Assembly (NCBI RefSeq): GCF_050920415.1
Contig: NZ_CP169309.1
Reading direction: 5' to 3' (one strand)
Length of the DNA: 64,000 bases
From: Escherichia coli
GTDB lineage: Bacteria; Pseudomonadota; Gammaproteobacteria; Enterobacterales; Enterobacteriaceae
Shown here piece after piece: positions 20,206-32,823 of this stretch (positions within the stretch are counted from its first letter, which is position 1; every line of letters begins with the position of its first letter). Made by a program: the position numbers and the translations under genes. Below the pieces are notes generated by a model. The model was not told the DNA's origin, did no database searches, and saw only the letters and a program-made list of their open reading frames with translations.

Positions 20206-21114
20206 CTAATTCTGCTGTAAAAAGTGCAGAAACTGACTTAAAGCATAAGAAGGCGTTTCGTTATTACGCCAAAACACACCGACGCTGCCTTTCTGTTCAA
20301 TCTTTGGCAGGTTGAGGATCACCAGTTGCCCCTGGCTGGCATAACGTTGCGCCAGGCGTAATGACAAAATAGAGATCATATTGCTGCTTTGTAACAGGTT
20401 GGTACTGACGTTCATCGACGCCGACTCAATCGTGTTTTCTGGCAGCATCACGCCGTGGTCTACCAGCGCATTATCAATGCTGATGCGGATGGGGGTACCT
20501 GTCGGCCAGACTATCCACCGCCAGTTAGCAAGATCATTCCAGCTGAGGGTGGCGTATTTCGCCAGTGGATGCTCAGGACGGGCGACAAAGCATACCGGCT
20601 CGGTGTAGAGCACGCGATAATTCAGCGGCAGCTGCAACGCGCGACCGCCAATTCGCCCAACCACCACATCGATAGAACCTGCCAACAGATCTTGCAGCAA
20701 TGGGGTCATCACCTTCTCTTCGATATTCAGGTGTAGAGTTGGCATCTCCTTGAGCAAATGCAAAATCGCCTGGGATACGCAGTCAGTGGCGACGGGAGAA
20801 CAGCCAATTTTCAGACTGCCGACCAGTCCACCTTGTTTAAAGCGAGCCAGTTCATATTGCGATCTTTCCATGTCATTGATTAACCGTTGGGCATGTTGCA
20901 ATAACAATTTGCCGCCTTCGGTCGGACGAAGCCCGTTGCTGTGCCGCTCAAAAAGTGTGAGTCCGATCTCATCTTCCAGTTGTGACAACCATTTCGAAAG
21001 CGCGGGTTGGGTGATATTCATCATCCGTGCGACATGGGTCAGATTACCCTGTTCACCCAGCGCCACCAGCATTTGCAGGTGATGTAGTTTTAGTTTTTGC
21101 GCCCAGTTCGCCAT
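20206..21114 (-). CDS. mhbR: LysR-family transcriptional regulator, divergent from the gentisate operon
   Basis: N-terminal HTH ('LHHLQMLVALGEQGNLTHVARMMNITQPALSKWLSQLE') plus LysR substrate-binding domain; divergent arrangement as in Klebsiella mhbR. Start at in-frame ATG 21114 (longer ORF to 21162 possible). Confidence 0.75.
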   Translation of the reverse strand: MANWAQKLKLHHLQMLVALGEQGNLTHVARMMNITQPALSKWLSQLEDEIGLTLFERHSNGLRPTEGGKLLLQHAQRLINDMERSQYELARFKQGGLVGSLKIGCSPVATDCVSQAILHLLKEMPTLHLNIEEKVMTPLLQDLLAGSIDVVVGRIGGRALQLPLNYRVLYTEPVCFVARPEHPLAKYATLSWNDLANWRWIVWPTGTPIRISIDNALVDHGVMLPENTIESASMNVSTNLLQSSNMISILSLRLAQRYASQGQLVILNLPKIEQKGSVGVFWRNNETPSYALSQFLHFLQQN

Positions 21115-21240
21115 TTGCCATAACCTCCAGGTTATCTCTCTGCCCGAAATGCCATTGTACATCTCATCTCTTTAATCACATTATCGCAACATATACAAAA
21201 CAAAAGAAACATCTACCTTACCTGCACTGAGGCATTTACT

Positions 21241-22599
21241 ATGACTCAACGACGTGATTTACAAGCACTTATCGATGCCGCTCCGGTCGGCAAGATGCAG
21301 TGGCGCGTTATCATCTGCTGTTTTCTGGTGGTAATGCTCGATGGTTTTGACACCGCGGCTATCGGCTTTATCGCCCCTGATATTCGCACTCACTGGCAAC
21401 TCACCGCAGGCGATCTCGCCCCGCTTTTTGGTGCGGGTCTGCTGGGTTTAACGGCAGGCGCACTGCTTTGTGGCCCGTTGTCTGACCGCTTTGGCCGCAA
21501 ACGGGTGATAGAGCTATGCGTCTTTTTATTTGGCGCGTTAAGTCTCGCCTCTGCGTTTTCACCAGATCTGCAAACGCTGGTATTACTGCGTTTTCTCACC
21601 GGCCTGGGGCTTGGCGGGGCGATGCCGAACACCATCACCATGACCTCGGAATATCTGCCTGCCCGTCGCCGGGGCGCGCTGGTGACGCTGATGTTTTGCG
21701 GCTTTACGCTGGGTTCGGCGTTTGGCGGGATTGTCAGCGCACAGCTGGTGCCGGTGATTGGCTGGCACGGCATTCTGGTGTTGGGGGGCGTGTTACCGCT
21801 GATGCTGTTTGTCGCACTGCTGGTAGTTCTGCCGGAATCGCCACGCTGGCAGGTGCGCCGCCAGCTACCGCAGGCGGTGATTGCGAAAACCGTCAGCGCC
21901 ATCACCCGCGAGCGTTATGTCGATACCCACTTTTATCTCATTGAATCAGCCTCCGTTACAAAAGGCAGCATTCGTCAACTGTTTATGGGACGTCAGTTAC
22001 CCATTACGTTGATGCTTTGGGTGGTGTTCTTTATGAGCCTGCTGATTATTTACCTGCTCTCAAGCTGGATGCCAACGCTGTTGAACCATCGCGGCATAGA
22101 CCTGCAACACGCGTCCTGGGTCACCGCCGCGTTCCAGATTGGCGGTACGTTGGGCGCGCTGGCGCTGGGCGTGCTGATGGATAAGTTCAATCCTTTCCGC
22201 GTGCTGGCGCTGAGCTATGCCGTAGGCGCTGTATGCATCGTGATGATTGGCTTAAGCCAGGATGGATTATGGCTGATGGCGCTGGCGATTTTCGGCACCG
22301 GCATTGGCATTAGCGGATCTCAGGTGGGGTTGAACGCGTTGACCGCAACGCTCTACCCAACGCAAAGCCGCGCCACGGGCGTGAGCTGGTCAAACGCCGT
22401 AGGCCGCTGCGGCGCGATTGTCGGCTCGCTTTCTGGCGGCCTGATGATGGCGATGAATTTCTCTTTCGACACCCTGTTTTTCATTATCGCTGTGCCCGCG
22501 GCGATCAGTGCGGTGATGTTAAGCCTGCTGATCACCGTGGTTCGCCAGTCGACCTCTGTCCCTGACTCACTGCCTCGCGCAGGCGTTGTGAACGAATAA
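21241..22599 (+). CDS. mhbT: MFS aromatic-acid:H+ symporter (3-hydroxybenzoate transporter-like), 452 aa
   Basis: 12-TM MFS with 'GRKR' loop motif; first gene of catabolic operon. Confidence 0.75.
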
Positions 22600-22610
22600 G
22601 GAGCATCCTA

Positions 22611-23639
22611 ATGACTGATAACAATCAAAAAAGCCGCGAGCAATTTTATCAGCATATTTCCGGGCAAAACCTGACCCCGCTGTGGGAGTCACTGCACCAC
22701 CTGGTGCCGAAAACGCCCAACGCCAACTGTGCGCCAGCGTACTGGAATTATCAGGAGATCCGCCCGCTGCTGCTGGAGAGCGGCAGCCTGATTGGCGCGA
22801 AAGAAGCTGTGCGTCGTGTGCTGGTACTGGAAAACCCGGCGCTGCGCGGGCAGTCTTCCATTACCGCGACTTTATATGCCGGTTTGCAACTGATCATGCC
22901 GGGCGAAGTGGCACCGAGTCATCGTCATAACCAATCGGCGCTGCGTTTTATTGTTGAAGGCAAAGGGGCATTTACCGCCGTTGATGGCGAACGCACGCCA
23001 ATGAATGAGGGCGATTTTATCCTGACCCCACAATGGCGCTGGCACGATCATGGTAACCCTGGCGACGAACCGGTTATCTGGCTCGATGGACTGGATCTGC
23101 CATTAGTGAACACTCTGGGCTGCGGTTTTGCCGAAGATTACCCGGAAGAGCAACAACCGGTCACGCGTAAAGAGGGGGATTATCTGCCGCGTTATGCCGC
23201 CAATATGTTGCCGCTGCGCCATCAGACGGGGAACTCCTCACCGATCTTTAACTATCGTTATGACCGTAGCCGCGAAGTGCTGCACGATTTAACCCGCCTG
23301 GGCGATGCCGACGAGTGGGATGGCTACAAAATGCGCTACGTCAACCCGGTCACCGGCGGCTATCCGATGCCGTCGATGGGCGCTTTCCTGCAACTGCTAC
23401 CGAAAGGGTTCGCCTCCCGCGTGGCGCGTACCACTGACAGCACTATCTACCATGTGGTGGAAGGTAGCGGACAAGTCACCATCGGCAATGAAATCTTCAC
23501 CTTTAGTGCAAAAGATCTCTTTGTGGTGCCGACCTGGCACGGCGTGTCATTCCAGACTACGCAAGATACCGTTTTATTCAGTTTTTCGGACAGACCGGTA
23601 CAAGAAGCCCTGGGGCTGTTCCGCGAAGCGCGTTATTAA
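22611..23639 (+). CDS. mhbD: Gentisate 1,2-dioxygenase (bicupin), 342 aa
   Basis: Two cupin modules with His triad ('[14 protein letters not shown]', 'WRWHDHGN'); length typical of gentisate dioxygenases. Confidence 0.8.
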
Positions 23640-23654
23640 TTTGGGAGAGAGAAA

Positions 23655-24356
23655 ATGACTCAATATGTATTCGAACCACAAGCGCCCGTTACCGTACCGG
23701 TTGTTGGCAGTGATGAACAATTCCCCGTGCGCCGCGTTTACTGCGTCGGGCGTAACTATGCTGCCCACGCCCGCGAAATGGGCTTTGATCCGGATCGTGA
23801 ACCCCCCTTCTTCTTCTGCAAACCAGCAGATGCCGTTGTTCCGGTCGCCGCTGGCGAAACGCTGGCGCTGCCGTATCCGGCGCAGACCGATAACTATCAT
23901 TACGAAATTGAACTGGTGGTGGCGATTGGTAAAAAGGGCAGCGATATCCCACTGGAAAAGGCCCATGAATATGTCTGGGGTTATGCCACAGGCCTTGATA
24001 TGACTCGCCGTGACCGTCAAATGGAAATGCGTCAGATGGGCCGCCCGTGGGAAATCGGCAAAGCATTTGATCTCTCGGCCCCCATCGCACCGCTGCACAA
24101 AGCCAGCGAAACTGGCGGTATTGATAACGCACCTATCTGGTTACAGGTTAACGGTGAAGATCACCAGCGCAGCGATATTCGCCATCTCATCTGGTCGGTG
24201 AATGAAACCATCAGCTACCTGTCAGGCTTCTTTGAACTGCAACCGGGCGATCTAATCTTTACCGGTACGCCGGAAGGGGTTGGCCCAGTAGTCAAAGGTG
24301 ATGTGATCACGGGCAACGTCGAGGGCTTAACCCCTATCGCGGTGAAGATCGTCTGA
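23655..24356 (+). CDS. mhbH: Fumarylpyruvate hydrolase (FAH family), 233 aa
   Basis: FAH-fold motifs ('[13 protein letters not shown]', 'GTPEGVGPV'). Confidence 0.75.
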
Positions 24357-24361
24357 GGTGC

Positions 24362-25009
24362 ATGATGAAGCTGTACAGTTTTTTTAATAGTTCAGCATCG
24401 TACCGGGTACGCATTGCGCTGGCGCTGAAAGGCATTAATTACCAGACCGAAGGGGTGAATATCCGTATTGGTCGGCAAAATGAACTGGCCTATCGGCGGA
24501 TGAATCCTGTCGGGCTGGTGCCGACGCTGCTGACTGACGAGGGCGAGTCACTCGGTCAGTCGCTGGCGATTATTGACTGGCTGGATCGTCACTACCCGCA
24601 AGTTCCGCTGGTGCCGCAGGAAGAACCGGCCCGCAATAAGGTGCTGGGAATTGTCTATGCCATCGCTTGTGATATTCATCCATTGAATAACCTGCGCGTG
24701 CTGCGCTATCTGACCGAAGAGCTGAACGTCAGTGAAGAAGAGAAAAAACGCTGGTATGCGCACTGGATCCAGCAAGGGTTAAGCGCGGTGGAACAGCTAC
24801 TGCGCCAGAGCCAGTCGGGGCAATTTTGTGTGGGTGAGACGCCGACGCTGGCAGACTGCTGCCTTGTTCCGCAGTGGGCGAACGCGCTACGTATGAACTG
24901 CGATCTGAGAGGATATCCGCGCTGCAAAGCGGTGTACGACGCCTGCACACAACTGCCAGCGTTCATTGCCGCAGCGCCAGAAAATCAACAAGATAAAATT
25001 TCAGCCTGA
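24362..25009 (+). CDS. mhbI: Maleylpyruvate isomerase (zeta-class glutathione S-transferase), 215 aa
   Basis: GST N-terminal thioredoxin fold ('KLYSFFNSSASYRVRIAL') and GST-zeta-like C-terminus; sits between hydrolase and hydroxylase. Confidence 0.7.
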   Translation: MMKLYSFFNSSASYRVRIALALKGINYQTEGVNIRIGRQNELAYRRMNPVGLVPTLLTDEGESLGQSLAIIDWLDRHYPQVPLVPQEEPARNKVLGIVYAIACDIHPLNNLRVLRYLTEELNVSEEEKKRWYAHWIQQGLSAVEQLLRQSQSGQFCVGETPTLADCCLVPQWANALRMNCDLRGYPRCKAVYDACTQLPAFIAAAPENQQDKISA

Positions 25010-25023
25010 CCAGGAGAACCATA

Positions 25024-26217
25024 ATGACTAAAGTGACACGCGCAGTAATTGTGGGAGGCGGGATCGGCGGTGCGGCAACTGCGCTGTCACTGGCCCGCCA
25101 GGGGATCAAAGTGGTGCTGCTGGAAAAGGCGCATGAGATCGGTGAGATTGGCGCAGGTATCCAGTTGGGGCCAAATGCGTTTTCGGCGTTGGATAGTCTT
25201 GGTGTTGGCGAAATCGCCCGCCAACGTGCGGTATTCACCGATCACATCACCATGATGGACGCGGTGAACGCCGAAGAAGTGGTGCGTATTGAAACCGGGC
25301 AGGCCTTTCGTGACCATTTCGGCGGCCCTTACGCGGTGATCCACCGCGTTGATATTCATGCCTCGGTGTGGGAAGCGGTACTGACGCATCCGGACGTGGA
25401 ATATCACACCTCCACCAACGTCGTGGATATTCGCGAGACGGAAGACGATGTCACCGTGTTTGACGATCGCGGCAATAGCTGGAGCGGCGATATTCTGATT
25501 GGCTGTGACGGTGTGAAATCAGTGGTGCGCCAGAGCTTATTGGGCGATGCGCCGCGTGTCACCGGACATGTGGTCTACCGTGCGGTTATCGATTGTGCCG
25601 ATATGCCGGAAGATTTGCGCATTAACGCACCGGTACTGTGGGCGGGGCCGCATTGTCACCTGGTGCATTACCCTTTGCGCGGCGGCAAGCAGTATAACCT
25701 GGTGGTAACATTCCACAGCCGCCAGCAGGAAGAGTGGGGCGTGAAGGATGGCAGTAAAGAGGAAGTGCTCTCTTACTTTGAAGGGATTCACCCCCGTCCG
25801 CGCCAGATGTTGGATAAACCGACTTCATGGCGACGCTGGTCAACCGCTGACCGTGAACCGGTGGCGAAGTGGGGAACGAAGCGCATAACGCTTGTGGGCG
25901 ATGCGGCCCATCCGGTGGCGCAATATATGGCGCAGGGAGCCTGTATGGCGCTGGAAGATGCAGTAACGCTGGGTAAGGCGCTGGCGCAGTGTGAGGGTGA
26001 TGCGGCGCAAGCCTTTGCGCTGTATGAGTCGGTACGAATTCCGCGCACCGCGCGCATCGTCTGGTCGACCCGTGAAATGGGGCGGGTTTATCACGCCGCA
26101 GGGGTAGAACGTCAGGTACGTAACCTGCTGTGGAAAGGGAAATCGCAGGCAGAGTTTTATCGCGGCATGGAGTGGCTGTACGGCTGGAAAGAAGATAACT
26201 GTTTGCAACCACGCTGA
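25024..26217 (+). CDS. mhbM: 3-Hydroxybenzoate 6-hydroxylase (FAD-dependent aromatic monooxygenase, salicylate hydroxylase-like), 397 aa
   Basis: FAD motifs 'VIVGGGIGGAATAL' and 'GDAAHPVAQYMAQGACMALEDA'. Confidence 0.8.
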   Translation: MTKVTRAVIVGGGIGGAATALSLARQGIKVVLLEKAHEIGEIGAGIQLGPNAFSALDSLGVGEIARQRAVFTDHITMMDAVNAEEVVRIETGQAFRDHFGGPYAVIHRVDIHASVWEAVLTHPDVEYHTSTNVVDIRETEDDVTVFDDRGNSWSGDILIGCDGVKSVVRQSLLGDAPRVTGHVVYRAVIDCADMPEDLRINAPVLWAGPHCHLVHYPLRGGKQYNLVVTFHSRQQEEWGVKDGSKEEVLSYFEGIHPRPRQMLDKPTSWRRWSTADREPVAKWGTKRITLVGDAAHPVAQYMAQGACMALEDAVTLGKALAQCEGDAAQAFALYESVRIPRTARIVWSTREMGRVYHAAGVERQVRNLLWKGKSQAEFYRGMEWLYGWKEDNCLQPR

Positions 26218-26375: not shown

Positions 26376-27323
26376 ATGCGTGTGTTACTGGCGCCGATGG
26401 AGGGTGTACTCGACTCTCTGGTGCGTGAATTGCTGACCGAAGTTAACGACTACGATCTGTGCATCACCGAGTTTGTCCGCGTGGTGGATCAACTGCTGCC
26501 GGTAAAAGTTTTTCATCGCATTTGCCCGGAGCTACAAAACGCCAGCCGAACGCCATCCGGTACGCTGGTGCGCGTGCAATTGCTGGGTCAGTTCCCACAA
26601 TGGCTGGCAGAGAACGCCGCCCGTGCGGTGGAGTTAGGTTCCTGGGGTGTGGATCTTAATTGCGGCTGTCCGTCGAAAACGGTTAACGGTAGCGGCGGCG
26701 GGGCGACACTACTCAAAGATCCTGAACTCATCTACCAGGGTGCAAAAGCGATGCGTGAAGCTGTACCGGCGCATTTGCCCGTCAGTGTGAAAGTGCGTCT
26801 GGGCTGGGACAGCGGTGAGAAGAAATTTGAAATCGCCGATGCGGTTCAACAGGCTGGCGCTACGGAGTTGGTGGTGCATGGGCGGACAAAAGAGCAGGGG
26901 TACCGCGCGGAGCATATTGACTGGCAGGCGATTGGCGAGATTCGCCAACGGCTGAATATTCCGGTGATTGCCAACGGTGAAATCTGGGACTGGCAGAGCG
27001 CGCAACAGTGTATGGCGATCAGCGGCTGTGACGCGGTGATGATTGGTCGCGGAGCGCTCAATATTCCCAATCTGAGCCGAGTGGTAAAATATAACGAACC
27101 GCGAATGCCGTGGCCGGAGGTGGTTGCTTTGCTACAAAAATATACCCGTCTGGAAAAGCAGGGCGATACCGGGTTATATCACGTTGCGCGGATTAAACAG
27201 TGGTTGAGTTATTTGCGTAAAGAATACGATGAAGCAACAGAATTATTTCAGCATGTTCGGGTGTTGAATAATTCCCCTGATATTGCAAGGGCTATTCAGA
27301 CCATTGATATCGAGAAACTCTAA
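26376..27323 (+). CDS. dusC: tRNA-dihydrouridine synthase C, ~315 aa
   Basis: Dus family TIM-barrel sequence; start chosen at [10 protein letters not shown] (ORF track allows 19 extra N-terminal codons). Confidence 0.85.
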
Positions 27324-27379
27324 GAAACCATAGTGATGTTTTTTGACAATGTGTTAGCTCTTTATCAATAGGCCGCACG

Positions 27380-27610
27380 GTTGTTTGGTGGCGTCAAAAT
27401 CGCCGAGGCGTTCCCTGAAGGCCGGGGCAGCCCACATGGATGTGGGCTGAGGGCGCGTTTTACAGGGATGTTACCTCGCGCCCGACCCGGTAGCCGTAAG
27501 GGATAAGCCGAGGGCACCGCGCAGCGGCGATTTTGTTCGCCAGAGCCCGGGGGTGCAGGGGGCGGCGGCGACTGGTCGCCCCCTGCGCGCTCCTTGCGCT
27601 AGTGATTATA
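27380..27610. other. GC-rich, highly structured intergenic element of unknown identity (multiple hairpins)
   Basis: Several strong inverted repeats (gcagcccacatggatgtgggctg; gggcgcg-N19-cgcgccc; gggggcggcggcgactggtcgccccc) read in sequence; no convincing ORF. Confidence 0.3.
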
Positions 27611-27695
27611 TGAAGCAATGTACATGACAGGAGCGCAACAGGATGAGAGACTGAAATATTCTCGTTATTTTCGGATCTGATGACGTTAATTAATT

Positions 27696-27779
27696 TTAAA
27701 ATATCATCTTAAATACGCCAGTCACCACCAGTAGTCCAATCAGGAAAATAATCAATACAGCCCAGAGTATAATTTTCAT
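27696..27779 (-). CDS. yohP: Small single-TM membrane protein, 27 aa (MKIILWAVLIIFLIGLLVVTGVFKMIF)
   Basis: Not in supplied ORF track (below length cutoff); translated by hand. Sequence and position between dusC and mdtQ match the known E. coli small protein YohP as I recall it. Confidence 0.65.
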   Translation of the reverse strand: MKIILWAVLIIFLIGLLVVTGVFKMIF

Positions 27780-28002
27780 TGGCGTTCCTTTATTTGTGAG
27801 TGTCGAATAAGTATAGGAAAAAACGAAGCCCTTTGCCGTTACTCATAAGTGATTAAGATAAATCGGAGAATATCATTCACTTACTGTATATTTTTCTGAA
27901 TATGTCGTTTTATTGCCACTGATGTATTGCCACGCGAAACTAAAAAATATATTGCATCACACGGTAATCTCCGCGCACCTTTTCTTACCTGACTATTCCT
28001 CC

Positions 28003-29439
28003 ATGAATCGTGATTCCTTTTACCCAGCCATCGCCTGTTTTCCTCTGTTACTGATGCTGGCCGGGTGTGCGCCTATGCATGAAACCCGCCAGGCGTTAAG
28101 CCAGCAAACACCCGCTGCGCAAGTTGACACCGCATTACCTACGGCGCTGAAAAATGGTTGGCCAGACAGCCAATGGTGGCTGGAGTATCACGATAATCAA
28201 CTCACTTCATTAATTAACTATGCACTGCAGAATGCACCGGATATGCAGGTGGCTGAACAGCGCATTCAGCTGGCTGAAGCCCAGGCGAAGGCAGTTGCCA
28301 CTCAGGATGGCCCTCAGATCGATTTTTCTGCGGATATGGAGCGGCAAAAAATGTCGGCAGAAGGGCTAATGGGGCCGTTTGCTCTGAACGATCCTGCCGC
28401 AGGTACGACCGGTCCGTGGTACACCAATGGTACTTTTGGCTTAACGGCGGGCTGGCATCTTGATATTTGGGGAAAGAATCGGGCGGAGGTTACTGCTCGC
28501 CTGGGTACAGTTAAAGCACGGGCGGCGGAACGCGAGCAAACCCGCCAATTGCTGGCTGGCAGCGTTGCCCGCCTTTACTGGGAGTGGCAAACCCAGGCAG
28601 CGTTAAACACTGTTTTGCAGCAAATCGAAAAAGAGCAGAACACCATTATCGCGACCGATCGCCAGCTATACCAGAACGGGATTACTTCTTCAGTTGAAGG
28701 TGTGGAAACCGATATTAATGCCAGCAAGACCCGGCAGCAGCTCAACGATGTCGTGGGAAAAATGAAAATTATTGAGGCACGGTTAAGCGCACTTACAAAT
28801 CACCAGATAAAGTCATTGAAGCTTAAACCGGTTGAGTTGCCGAAAGTGGCAAGTCAGCTTCCTGATGAACTGGGGTATTCATTGCTGGCACGGCGGGCAG
28901 ATTTGCAGGCAGCGCATTGGTACGTTGAGTCATCGTTAAGCACCATTGATGCGGCAAAAGCGGCCTTTTATCCTGACATCAACCTGATGGCCTTCCTGCA
29001 ACAGGATGCGTTGCACTTAAGCGATTTGTTCCGTCATTCCGCGCAGCAAATGGGCGTTACGGCAGGCCTGACGCTACCCATTTTCGATAGTGGTCGTCTT
29101 AACGCCAACCTCGATATTGCAAAAGCCGAAAGCAACTTGTCTATCGCCAGCTACAACAAAGCGGTGGTTGAAGCGGTGAATGACGTGGCGCGGGCAGCCA
29201 GTCAGGTTCAGACGCTGGCGGAGAAAAACCAGCATCAGGCGCAAATTGAGCGCGATGCCTTGCGTGTGGTAGGTCTTGCGCAGGCCCGCTTTAACGCGGG
29301 TATCATTGCTGGTTCCCGCGTCAGCGAAGCCAGGATCCCGGCGCTGCGTGAGCGGGCCAATGGCCTGTTATTGTAAGGGCAGTGGCTGGATGCCTCCATT
29401 CAACTCACTGGTGCGTTGGGCGGGGGTTACAAACGCTGA
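28003..29439 (+). pseudogene. mdtQ: Outer-membrane efflux channel (OprM/NodT family lipoprotein); reading frame interrupted by in-frame TAA at 29374-29376
   Basis: Lipoprotein signal 'LLLMLAGC'; OMF family body. After the TAA stop the same frame continues 'GQWLDASIQLTGALGGGYKR*', which carries the family-typical ALGGG(Y/W) C-terminal motif, so the stop is premature. Confidence 0.6.
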
Positions 29440-29491
29440 TGATATACGCCTTCTATACTTAACGTTTATTCAGCGTTAAGTGGAGAACTCG

Positions 29492-30253
29492 ATGGCACAG
29501 GTCGCGATTATTACCGCTTCCGATTCGGGGATCGGCAAAGAGTGCGCGTTATTACTGGCGCAGCAGGGTTTTGATATTGGTATTACCTGGCACTCAGATG
29601 AAGAAGGGGCAAAAGATACCGCGCGTGAGGTGGTTAGCCACGGCGTACGTGCGGAGATGGTGCAGTTGGATCTCGGTAAACTGCCAGAGGGGGCAATGGC
29701 GCTGGAGAAACTTATTCAACGGCTGGGGCGCATCGATGTGCTCGTGAATAATGCGGGCACAATGACCAAAGCGCCGTTTCTTGATATGGCTTTCGATGAG
29801 TGGCGCAAGATTTTTACCGTTGATGTTGATGGTGCATTTTTATGCTCGCAAATTGCGGCCCGCCAGATGGTGAAACAAGGGCAGGGCGGTCGCATCATCA
29901 ACATTACGTCGGTACATGAACATACGCCGCTGCCGGATGCCAGCGCCTATACAGCCGCTAAACATGCACTCGGTGGGCTAACCAAAGCGATGGCGCTTGA
30001 GCTGGTCAGGCATAAGATTTTGGTGAATGCAGTCGCGCCTGGGGCTATCGCCACGCCAATGAATGGCATGGATGACGGCGACGTGAAGCCCGACGCGGAG
30101 CCTTCGATTCCCCTGCGGCGTTTCGGCGCAACGCATGAGATTGCCAGCCTGGTGGCGTGGTTATGCTCTGAAGGCGCAAATTACACCACCGGGCAGTCGT
30201 TAATTGTCGATGGTGGCTTTATGCTGGCGAATCCGCAGTTCAACCCAGAATAG
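29492..30253 (+). CDS. yohF: Short-chain dehydrogenase/reductase (SDR), ~253 aa
   Basis: 'TASDSGIGK' cofactor-binding motif and 'YTAAKHAL' catalytic YxxxK. Confidence 0.85.
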   Translation: MAQVAIITASDSGIGKECALLLAQQGFDIGITWHSDEEGAKDTAREVVSHGVRAEMVQLDLGKLPEGAMALEKLIQRLGRIDVLVNNAGTMTKAPFLDMAFDEWRKIFTVDVDGAFLCSQIAARQMVKQGQGGRIINITSVHEHTPLPDASAYTAAKHALGGLTKAMALELVRHKILVNAVAPGAIATPMNGMDDGDVKPDAEPSIPLRRFGATHEIASLVAWLCSEGANYTTGQSLIVDGGFMLANPQFNPE

Positions 30254-30297
30254 CGCAGTGAGGTGCGTGGTTGTTTCAATGGGTAATCTTTGGTAGG

Positions 30298-30370
30298 TAT
30301 GATAAGACGCATAAGCGTCGCATCAGGCATGGTGCGACGGATGTCGGATGCGGCGCAAACGCCTTATTCT
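30298..30370. repeat. REP element(s) between yohF and yohD
   Basis: gcatcaggcatggtgcgacggatgtcggatgcggcgcaaacgcc palindromic units. Confidence 0.5.
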
Positions 30371-30381
30371 AGGCAATGGTT

Positions 30382-30960
30382 TTACGCCTGATTATCCGGC
30401 TTTTTCTTCCCGCGTCGTTTCAGCCACCAGCGCACGCCTACCACCAGAACCACGACCAGAATCAACCAGACCCAGTGCTTCAAATGCTGGTCGAGATTGT
30501 GCAACCACGGCGCAATCACCTGACCACCAGCGTAACCGATAGTGGTAAAAATCAACGCCCAGGCAAATGCGCCAAGGATATTCAGTGGCAGAAAGATTTT
30601 CGGCGGCAGCTGGCTGGCACCAATCAGCGTCGGGCCAATCACCCTAAAGCCATACATAAAACGCGTACCAATGACAAACAGATACGGATGGCGTTGGATA
30701 AGTTTCTGCGCCCGCTCAATTTTATCCTGATGTTTCGAGAAACGGCGTAATAGCTTGCCGCCAAAGCGCCGCCCGCACAGATAAAGCACCTGGTCGCCAA
30801 TCATGCCGCCAAGCGCCACAGAAAGTACCACCAGCGGGAACTTTAATAGTCCCTGATGTGCCGCAACGCCTCCCAGCAAAGTCACGGTTTCACCTTCCGC
30901 CAGGCTACCGATCACCAGCGCGGCATAACCATATTGTGAGATGAGTGTATTGAGATCCAT
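30382..30960 (-). CDS. yohD: DedA-family inner membrane protein, ~192 aa
   Basis: DedA/SNARE-associated fold; start chosen at MDLNTLISQYGY. Confidence 0.8.
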   Translation of the reverse strand: MDLNTLISQYGYAALVIGSLAEGETVTLLGGVAAHQGLLKFPLVVLSVALGGMIGDQVLYLCGRRFGGKLLRRFSKHQDKIERAQKLIQRHPYLFVIGTRFMYGFRVIGPTLIGASQLPPKIFLPLNILGAFAWALIFTTIGYAGGQVIAPWLHNLDQHLKHWVWLILVVVLVVGVRWWLKRRGKKKPDNQA

Positions 30961-31129
30961 AGGCCAGTCTGTCTCCCTTTGGTTGCCTGTAAGCATACAC
31001 CCTGTGAATAGTTAACGCTGAAAAAGGACATACATCAGACGGTGCAAATTACATGAGCGAACAAAAAATAATCACAAGCTGACTTATACTTGAACTGTCA
31101 GGTTCATGAACTCACAACAAGGGGGCGGT

Positions 31130-31717
31130 ATGAGCCATGTCTGGGGACTGTTTTCCCATCCCGATCGTGAAATGCAGGTGATTAATCGCGAAAACGAAAC
31201 GATTTCTCATCACTACACCCACCACGTTTTGCTGATGGCGGCAATTCCGGTGATTTGCGCCTTCATTGGCACCACACAAATTGGCTGGAATTTTGGCGAT
31301 GGCACCATCCTGAAGTTATCCTGGTTTACCGGACTGGCGCTGGCTGTCTTGTTTTATGGCGTTATGCTGGCTGGGGTCGCGGTGATGGGGCGGGTCATTT
31401 GGTGGATGGCACGCAATTACCCGCAGCGTCCGTCGCTTGCGCACTGTATGGTCTTCGCGGGCTACGTTGCGACGCCGCTGTTTTTAAGCGGTCTGGTGGC
31501 GCTTTACCCGCTGGTCTGGTTGTGTGCGCTGGTCGGCACGGTGGCGCTGTTTTACACCGGCTACCTGCTTTATCTCGGTATTCCAAGCTTCCTGAATATC
31601 AACAAAGAGGAAGGCCTTAGCTTCTCCAGTTCGACGCTGGCGATTGGCGTGCTGGTACTGGAAGTGCTGCTCGCCCTTACCGTTATACTATGGGGTTACG
31701 GTTATCGTTTGTTCTAG
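31130..31717 (+). CDS. yohC: Yip1-family inner membrane protein, ~195 aa
   Basis: Polytopic; start chosen at MSHVWGLF. Confidence 0.75.
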   Translation: MSHVWGLFSHPDREMQVINRENETISHHYTHHVLLMAAIPVICAFIGTTQIGWNFGDGTILKLSWFTGLALAVLFYGVMLAGVAVMGRVIWWMARNYPQRPSLAHCMVFAGYVATPLFLSGLVALYPLVWLCALVGTVALFYTGYLLYLGIPSFLNINKEEGLSFSSSTLAIGVLVLEVLLALTVILWGYGYRLF

Positions 31718-31890
31718 AAAGTTCTTTTGTGTTGCATTGCTGGCGTAAATGTCAGCAATGCAGCATTTCCTCACGATTCTCCTTTGACGATCGCACTTTT
31801 TGCTCGTTATGATGGCGTCGCTAGCCTCAGTAAATCCTTACTCCGGCGGTGCGCAACCCGTGCGCGTGAACCACTATCTGAATGCTCATC

Positions 31891-32823
31891 ATGCCGAAAT
31901 TTCGAGTTTCTTTATTTAGCCTGGCCCTGATGCTGGCTGTGCCTTTTGCACCGCAGGCCGTTGCGAAAACGGCAGTCGCTACCACCGCTTCACAGCCGGA
32001 AATTGCCTCCGGTAGCGCGATGATTGTTGATCTGAATACCAACAAAGTGATCTATTCGAACCACCCGGATCTGGTGCGTCCGATTGCGTCTATCAGCAAA
32101 TTAATGACCGCGATGGTTGTGCTGGATGCACGATTGCCGCTGGATGAAAAACTGAAAGTGGATATCAGCCAGACGCCGGAGATGAAAGGGGTCTATTCGC
32201 GCGTACGACTGAACAGCGAAATCAGCCGTAAAGAGATGCTGTTGCTGGCGCTGATGTCTTCAGAAAACCGCGCGGCGGCAAGCCTTGCGCACCATTATCC
32301 CGGTGGTTACAAAGCCTTTATTAAGGCGATGAATGCGAAAGCGAAATCGCTCGGAATGAACAACACGCGCTTTGTTGAACCGACCGGATTGTCGGTGCAT
32401 AACGTTTCAACCGCTCGTGATTTAACCAAACTGCTTATTGCCAGCAAACAATATCCATTGATCGGGCAGTTAAGTACTACCCGGGAAGATATGGCAACCT
32501 TCTCTAACCCGACGTATACGCTGCCGTTCCGCAATACTAACCATCTGGTGTATCGCGATAACTGGAATATTCAGTTAACCAAAACCGGTTTTACCAATGC
32601 GGCGGGCCATTGTCTGGTGATGCGCACGGTTATCAATAATAAACCGGTGGCGCTGGTAGTGATGGATGCGTTTGGCAAATATACCCATTTTGCCGATGCC
32701 AGCCGCCTGCGTACCTGGATTGAAACCGGTAAAGTGATGCCTGTTCCGGCAGCAGCGTTGAGCTATAAAAAACAAAAAGCCGCCCAGATGGCGGCGGCGG
32801 GGCAGACGGCGCAGAACGATTAA
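31891..32823 (+). CDS. pbpG: D-alanyl-D-alanine endopeptidase (penicillin-binding protein 7), ~310 aa
   Basis: Signal peptide, active-site 'SISKLMT' (SxxK) and 'SSEN' (SxN) motifs. Confidence 0.9.

Follow-up and report, generated by a model that had tools for sequence, protein, structure and literature searches.

The Escherichia coli DNA analysed here, a stretch of 64,000 nucleotides referred to below as the window, very probably carries a genuine, recent and clone-restricted nonsense mutation in mdtQ, which introduces an early stop and would render the clone effectively null for this gene. The lesion is a single C to T transition at position 29374 that converts Gln458 to an ochre codon (Q458*). 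In the mechanism proposed, the change of codon 458 from CAA to TAA would end translation 21 residues early, and the product would be left without the last 14 residues of its final helix and without the invariant GGG(Y/W) cap that closes the folded part. The truncated MdtQ would then fail to fold or trimerise and would be degraded, so that bacteria of this clone would behave as mdtQ nulls.

The premature stop and the ancestral codon

Direct reading, the list of open reading frames and a one-frame translation agree that the mdtQ product begins MNRDSFYPAIACFPLLLMLAGC... and that the last sense codons before the TAA read ...RANGLLL, as the initial annotation had it when it described mdtQ as cut by an in-frame stop 21 codons early (Table 1). 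The precursor is 457 aa long, and the 21 missing residues are Q458 and those of the 20 codons downstream. That annotation also held that the frame carries on past the TAA as GQWLDASIQLTGALGGGYKR, up to a stop codon, with the ALGGG tail of the family, and here too it was right. The in-frame tail is not there by chance, since the 63 nt 3′ of the TAA have the same sequence as the 3′ ends of intact mdtQ alleles in other genomes (L003, L004, L005 and L008). The ALGGGY motif is encoded solely in this orphaned segment and is absent from the 457-aa product, while the lipobox, the lipoprotein signal of NodT-type outer-membrane factors, is present in it.

Table 1. Features of the mdtQ locus in the window (coordinates are positions in the window).
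Feature	Coordinates	Strand	Remarks
yohP, upstream neighbour, synteny marker	27696..27779	-	
Truncated mdtQ frame	28003..29376	+	ATG 28003, 457 sense codons and premature TAA
Lipobox L19-A20-G21-C22 (LAGC, residues 19-22)	28057..28068	+	translation ...LLLMLAGCAP
Premature TAA	29374..29376	+	T at 29374 in place of ancestral C (CAA, Gln458)
Orphaned mdtQ 3′ end	29377..29439	+	20 codons GQWLDASIQLTGALGGGYKR and original TGA 29437-29439
yohF (SDR oxidoreductase), downstream neighbour	29492..30253	+	same strand as mdtQ, intact

The position of the lipobox and the NCBIfam profile support the ATG at 28003 as the probable start of mdtQ, rather than an in-frame TTG at 27913 that would lengthen the open reading frame by 30 codons (27913-28002). 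This upstream start is used in some database entries, which are 484-508 aa long and begin MLLMYCHAKLKN...

Codon 458 was compared in nine E. coli genomes and is CAA (Gln) in all of them. Five have an mdtQ at least 99% identical to that of the window (N96, 2013C-4282, 2017-02-2CC, Z0117EC0005 and R32_14_1F) and the remaining four, K-12 among them, are more distant. An intact MdtQ of 478 aa is annotated in all but K-12, whose copy is frameshifted. The nearest allele, that of N96, differs from the mdtQ of the window by 4 nt, three synonymous differences and C1372T. Because all nine comparators have CAA and N96 is only four nucleotides away, the lesion can be assigned to the one transition. The nonsense mutation put forward in the initial annotation, for which it had asked for an alignment, is thus borne out by an ancestral CAA in a frame that is otherwise collinear.

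Gene identity and locus

Against the NCBIfam MdtQ equivalog NF008524.1 the 457-aa product scores 970.2 bits (cut-off 650), and the intact allele 1019 bits. The product covers positions 1-457 of the 478 in this profile, whereas an intact relative covers 1-478 of 478, and the product thus falls short of full length. The same is seen with TIGR01845 (NodT subfamily), of which the product covers 4-436 of 460 and the intact protein 4-460 of 460. The first of the two Pfam PF02321 (OEP) repeats is complete in the product (residues 69-266, model positions 3-187 of 187), and the second is shortened (residues 293-444, model positions 7-158 of 187, as against residues 293-473 and positions 7-187 of 187 in the intact protein). 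On the NF008524.1 score together with yohP-mdtQ-yohF synteny, we identify the truncated gene as mdtQ. The gene order dusC-yohP-mdtQ-yohF-yohD is the same in the lineage of the window, in K-12 and in O145:NM. In the complete genome MFDS1022581, PGAP marks mdtQ, at the very coordinates that it has in the window, as a pseudogene with the remark "incomplete; missing C-terminus".

Among the closest known systems is the intact MdtQ (YohG), for example WP_001078154.1, a protein of 478 aa that is 100% identical to the product of the window over residues 1-457 and shares with it the yohP/yohF locus, the lipobox and the OEP repeats. They differ in that Gln458 has become a stop and residues 458-478, including ALGGGY, are gone.

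Further consequences at the locus were considered and set aside. Nothing points to a polar effect on yohF: the extra untranslated stretch is just 63 nt, and a consensus scan of the mdtQ-yohF gap found no terminator-like site in it (nor any promoter-like site). A compensating second copy of mdtQ was rejected because MFDS1022581 has one matching place only, and a regional build-up of pseudogenes because mdtQ is the sole pseudogene flagged among 47 annotated features in 50 kb.

Conservation of the lost segment

Pairwise dN/dS (Nei-Gojobori) between E. coli mdtQ alleles lies at 0.03-0.13, with dS up to 0.16-0.18, which indicates that the intact gene is under strong purifying selection in this species. 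Within the last 21 codons the changes among alleles are mostly synonymous. In E. coli, E. albertii, Salmonella and Citrobacter, MdtQ orthologs have a length of 478-479 aa and end in ALGGGY followed by 2-3 residues. When 1.84 billion cluster representatives were searched, essentially all full-length homologs (25-60% identity) aligned through MdtQ residues 476-477. The possibility that the ALGGGYKR tail is a coincidence and that orthologs end where this product does was therefore rejected, and the ortholog check proposed in the initial annotation found none ending near residue 457.

In an alignment of 133 diverse homologs (25-60% identity) five columns are invariant, including that of G473, while L468, A471, L472, G474 and G475, like the lipobox Cys C22, reach a conservation of 90% or more. 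LGGG[WYF] is found in 111 of 129 full-length homologs. Six of the 36 positions conserved at 90% or more fall in the lost 4% of the protein.

Predicted fate of the truncated protein

An AlphaFold2 model of the ancestral intact MdtQ, built from the 133-sequence alignment, has a mean pLDDT of 90.4 and a pTM of 0.86. A Foldseek search of the PDB with this model finds VceC, CmeC, CusC, OprM and OprN (E 1e-25 to 1e-21, TM 0.72-0.79). The intact ancestral protein is confidently predicted to have the outer-membrane-factor (TolC-like) fold, with the beta-barrel strands and the long alpha-barrel helices. The final helix spans residues 437-471 of the model, so the stop is predicted to take away the GGGYKR cap together with the final 14 residues of this helix. 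The product retains 96% of the protein, namely the lipoprotein signal, OEP repeat 1, all four beta-strands, both beta-hairpins, the periplasmic tip and most of the alpha-barrel.

MdtQ residues 458-477 align with OprM 432-451 and VceC 419-438, and what the loss of this segment would mean can be gauged from mutants of these relatives. OprM from which 446-LGGGW-450 has been removed gives no detectable protein (Li & Poole 2001; Bai et al. 2014, both as cited in the passages on OprM mutants of PMC4790312). The same passages describe strongly impaired function for an OprM deletion of residues 429-439 (PMC4790312), and a passage on the equatorial domain of TolC describes a need for Leu412 (PMC8277102). 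Since the cut lies upstream of the motif and deletion of LGGGW abolishes the protein in OprM, Q458* is most likely a null allele with an unstable, non-assembling product, a reading that is drawn from OprM and TolC mutants and an identity of about 24%. By analogy with the OprM LGGGW deletions, the truncated protein is likewise predicted neither to form trimers in the outer membrane nor to support efflux. The OprM mutants are engineered forms of a 24%-identical homolog with known pump partners (MexAB), whereas the window holds a natural allele of an orphan channel, and it is for this allele that we infer the phenotype of no protein.

An alternative that we regard as improbable is that truncated MdtQ is made and assembled and keeps full or partial channel function, the stop being a tolerated C-terminal variant. 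The retained 96%, with the lipobox, both beta-hairpins and the periplasmic tip, is in keeping with this, as are the statements in the passages on OprM that loss of the residues downstream of LGGGW alone and single substitutions inside LGGGW are tolerated (PMC4790312). However, the cut is upstream and not downstream of the motif, so that the OprM-equivalent residues are gone from 432 onward, and the lost span includes all of LGGGW and overlaps the 429-439 deletion, for which these passages give a large functional impact. The invariant G473 and the five neighbouring positions conserved at 90% or more in the 133 homologs, the lack of any natural ortholog ending near residue 457 and the purifying selection on the tail in E. 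coli also stand against a tolerated variant.

Other mdtQ lesions and the possibility of adaptive loss

Strain K-12 also has a decayed mdtQ (yohG/yohH), annotated as "frameshifted" by PGAP. Its allele is 96% identical to that of the window and has lost one A from an A5 run at about nucleotide 148 of the gene (codon 50), and the shifted frame first meets a stop at codon 70. The two cases are alike in that the same gene is inactivated and is a pseudogene for PGAP in both, but the disruption is early and complete in K-12, whereas the late nonsense codon of the window leaves 96% of the frame. A shared lesion was thus rejected, the early frameshift at codon 50 being distinct from a change at codon 458, and the two inactivations are independent, in accord with the suggestion of the initial annotation that K-12 decayed through a different lesion.

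Natural premature stops are known from Salmonella as well, with two independent mdtQ stops in S. Typhi and further ones in Paratyphi A, in each case in few isolates while most are intact (PMC9241588). These are events in another species, at other positions and independent of the one described here. Shorter E. coli MdtQ proteins (420-465 aa) were considered as further C-terminal truncations and rejected, because they have internal deletions or alternative starts and an intact C-terminus. Forms with in-frame internal deletions of 24-58 residues and both termini kept (P0018, P0022, P0024, P0027, P0035, P0036 and P0039) have the deletions at about aa 110-184, 243-285 and 278-335, and a form of 435 aa is on 43 contigs. 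In E. coli, mdtQ thus varies or decays by other routes as well.

It is possible, although unlikely, that mdtQ loss is adaptive in some lineages, for example by shedding a surface-exposed receptor or antigen or by saving a cost. The independent losses listed above could be read in this way, that is, the K-12 frameshift, the stops in S. Typhi and Paratyphi A (PMC9241588), Q458* and the E. coli forms with in-frame deletions, and a passage on the related channel TolC describes it as a phage and colicin receptor (PMC11762307). On the other side, the gene is intact and strongly constrained across E. coli at the dN/dS values given above, the Q458* allele has a frequency of about 1 in 5426, and so few independent losses among tens of thousands of genomes are in keeping with mutation and drift in a weakly needed gene. 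To our knowledge, no phage or colicin uses MdtQ. That Q458* in particular belongs to a set of convergent mdtQ inactivations positively selected in certain niches, for instance as an escape from a phage, a colicin or a host factor, seems to us quite improbable; if it were true, the series of convergent inactivations could reveal the role of MdtQ.

Occurrence of the allele in other genomes

The identical TAA allele is found in the RefSeq genome MFDS1022581, in the GenBank draft GCA_002133425.1 and in the Logan assembly of SRR058106, and the mdtQ of the window and of these three is identical over all 1437 nt, TAA and tail included. When public collections are searched for the exact sequence, the 457-aa product turns up in GenBank under EGE64919.1, OTB67297.1, OTC20013.1 and OTE57282.1, as well as in Logan. 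Over positions 15000-39999 of the window one complete genome matches at about 100% (MFDS1022581, a food isolate from South Korea), and the next best at 98.9%. The TAA-bearing relatives differ from the window elsewhere, by single SNPs or a 1-nt homopolymer indel, and as the isolates have such differences at other positions they are not copies of one record.

Two of these differences are at 25262 (C/T, window versus MFDS1022581) and 25572 (G/T, window versus GCA_002133425.1). Both are inside the 3-hydroxybenzoate 6-monooxygenase gene, and they are the sole differences to the two closest relatives over about 7.4 kb. Upstream of the mdtQ start, at about 27932-27937, the SRR058106 assembly (L012, at about 272) has one A fewer in the A-run of ...GAAACTAAAAAATATATT..., which could be either true homopolymer variation or noise of the read technology.

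These records bear on the sequencing error that the initial annotation had offered as an alternative to a mutation. An error of sequencing or assembly, with CAA as the true codon and an intact gene, is very unlikely. Among complete RefSeq genomes the T is indeed confined to a single one that is near-identical to the window, but the TAA is present on the identical gene in MFDS1022581, GCA_002133425.1 and SRR058106, which come from separate projects with different raw data, and the exact 457-aa protein has four distinct GenBank accessions. The site itself, TTATTG[C/T]AAGGG, is neither a homopolymer nor a Dam or Dcm motif. Since separate projects and separate raw data agree on the TAA, an error of this kind can in practice be dismissed and the nonsense mutation is taken as real.

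The allele is rare. Of 5426 complete E. coli genomes, 5420 have a match to a region of 1551 nt around it, but in only 17 is the identity at least 99%. A 61-mer centred on the T is found exactly in one of 5409 matching genomes, and the same 61-mer with the ancestral C in 3235 of 5417. A 33-mer designed such that every megablast seed has to include the T hits one of 5426 complete E. coli genomes. By contigs, 949 carry the intact protein of this allele class and 3-4 the truncated one. This rarity, and the lack of any difference within the gene among the TAA-bearing sequences, indicate that the mutation is recent and confined to a small clone. The recency of the mutation explains why the downstream tail is still intact; equally, so young a mutation has left no time for the secondary decay that might confirm relaxed selection. 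Readthrough or recoding of the stop to give full-length MdtQ is extremely unlikely, since the 20 perfectly intact in-frame codons that would suggest it are accounted for by this recency and by the identity of all TAA alleles, termination in E. coli is most efficient at UAA, and we know of no natural recoding mechanism for this stop in the species.

The neighbouring region

The surroundings of mdtQ have features of their own. Between yohJ and dusC the window has a catabolic island of about 6 kb for 3-hydroxybenzoate and gentisate (20206-26217), with genes for a LysR regulator, mhbT, gtdA, a gene of the fumarylacetoacetate-hydrolase family, maiA and a 3-hydroxybenzoate 6-monooxygenase. In K-12 and O145:NM yohJ adjoins dusC directly, without the island. 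Positions 15000-39999 of the window are covered to at least 80% in only 497 of 5425 complete genomes. The stretch from dusC to pbpG (26376-32499) is unusually divergent, with 94.5-98% identity to K-12 and O145:NM and a dS of about 0.16 between its mdtQ and common alleles, and its haplotype is common to only 17 of 5420 complete genomes at an identity of at least 99%. This suggests that the dusC-pbpG stretch may be an old divergent or a recombined segment beside the island.

Implications for MdtQ

The mdtQ of this clone is an ordinary clone-specific nonsense pseudogene that is already known, through its PGAP flag in RefSeq and through the truncated protein in GenBank. As a channel, MdtQ is an orphan without pump genes beside it, and mdtQ nulls show mild hypersusceptibility only, to puromycin, acriflavine and tetraphenylarsonium (PMC11762307). 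As such nulls are just mildly more susceptible, a subtle phenotype is expected for the clone. It should nevertheless be scored as mdtQ-defective in inventories of efflux systems and resistomes, in which resistance-gene callers with a 95% coverage threshold would wrongly call mdtQ present and functional. Q458* is also a natural experiment on whether MdtQ depends on the LGGG(Y/W) helix cap as strictly as OprM does. Along with the further lesions that arose independently in mdtQ, it could help to define the role of this orphan channel.
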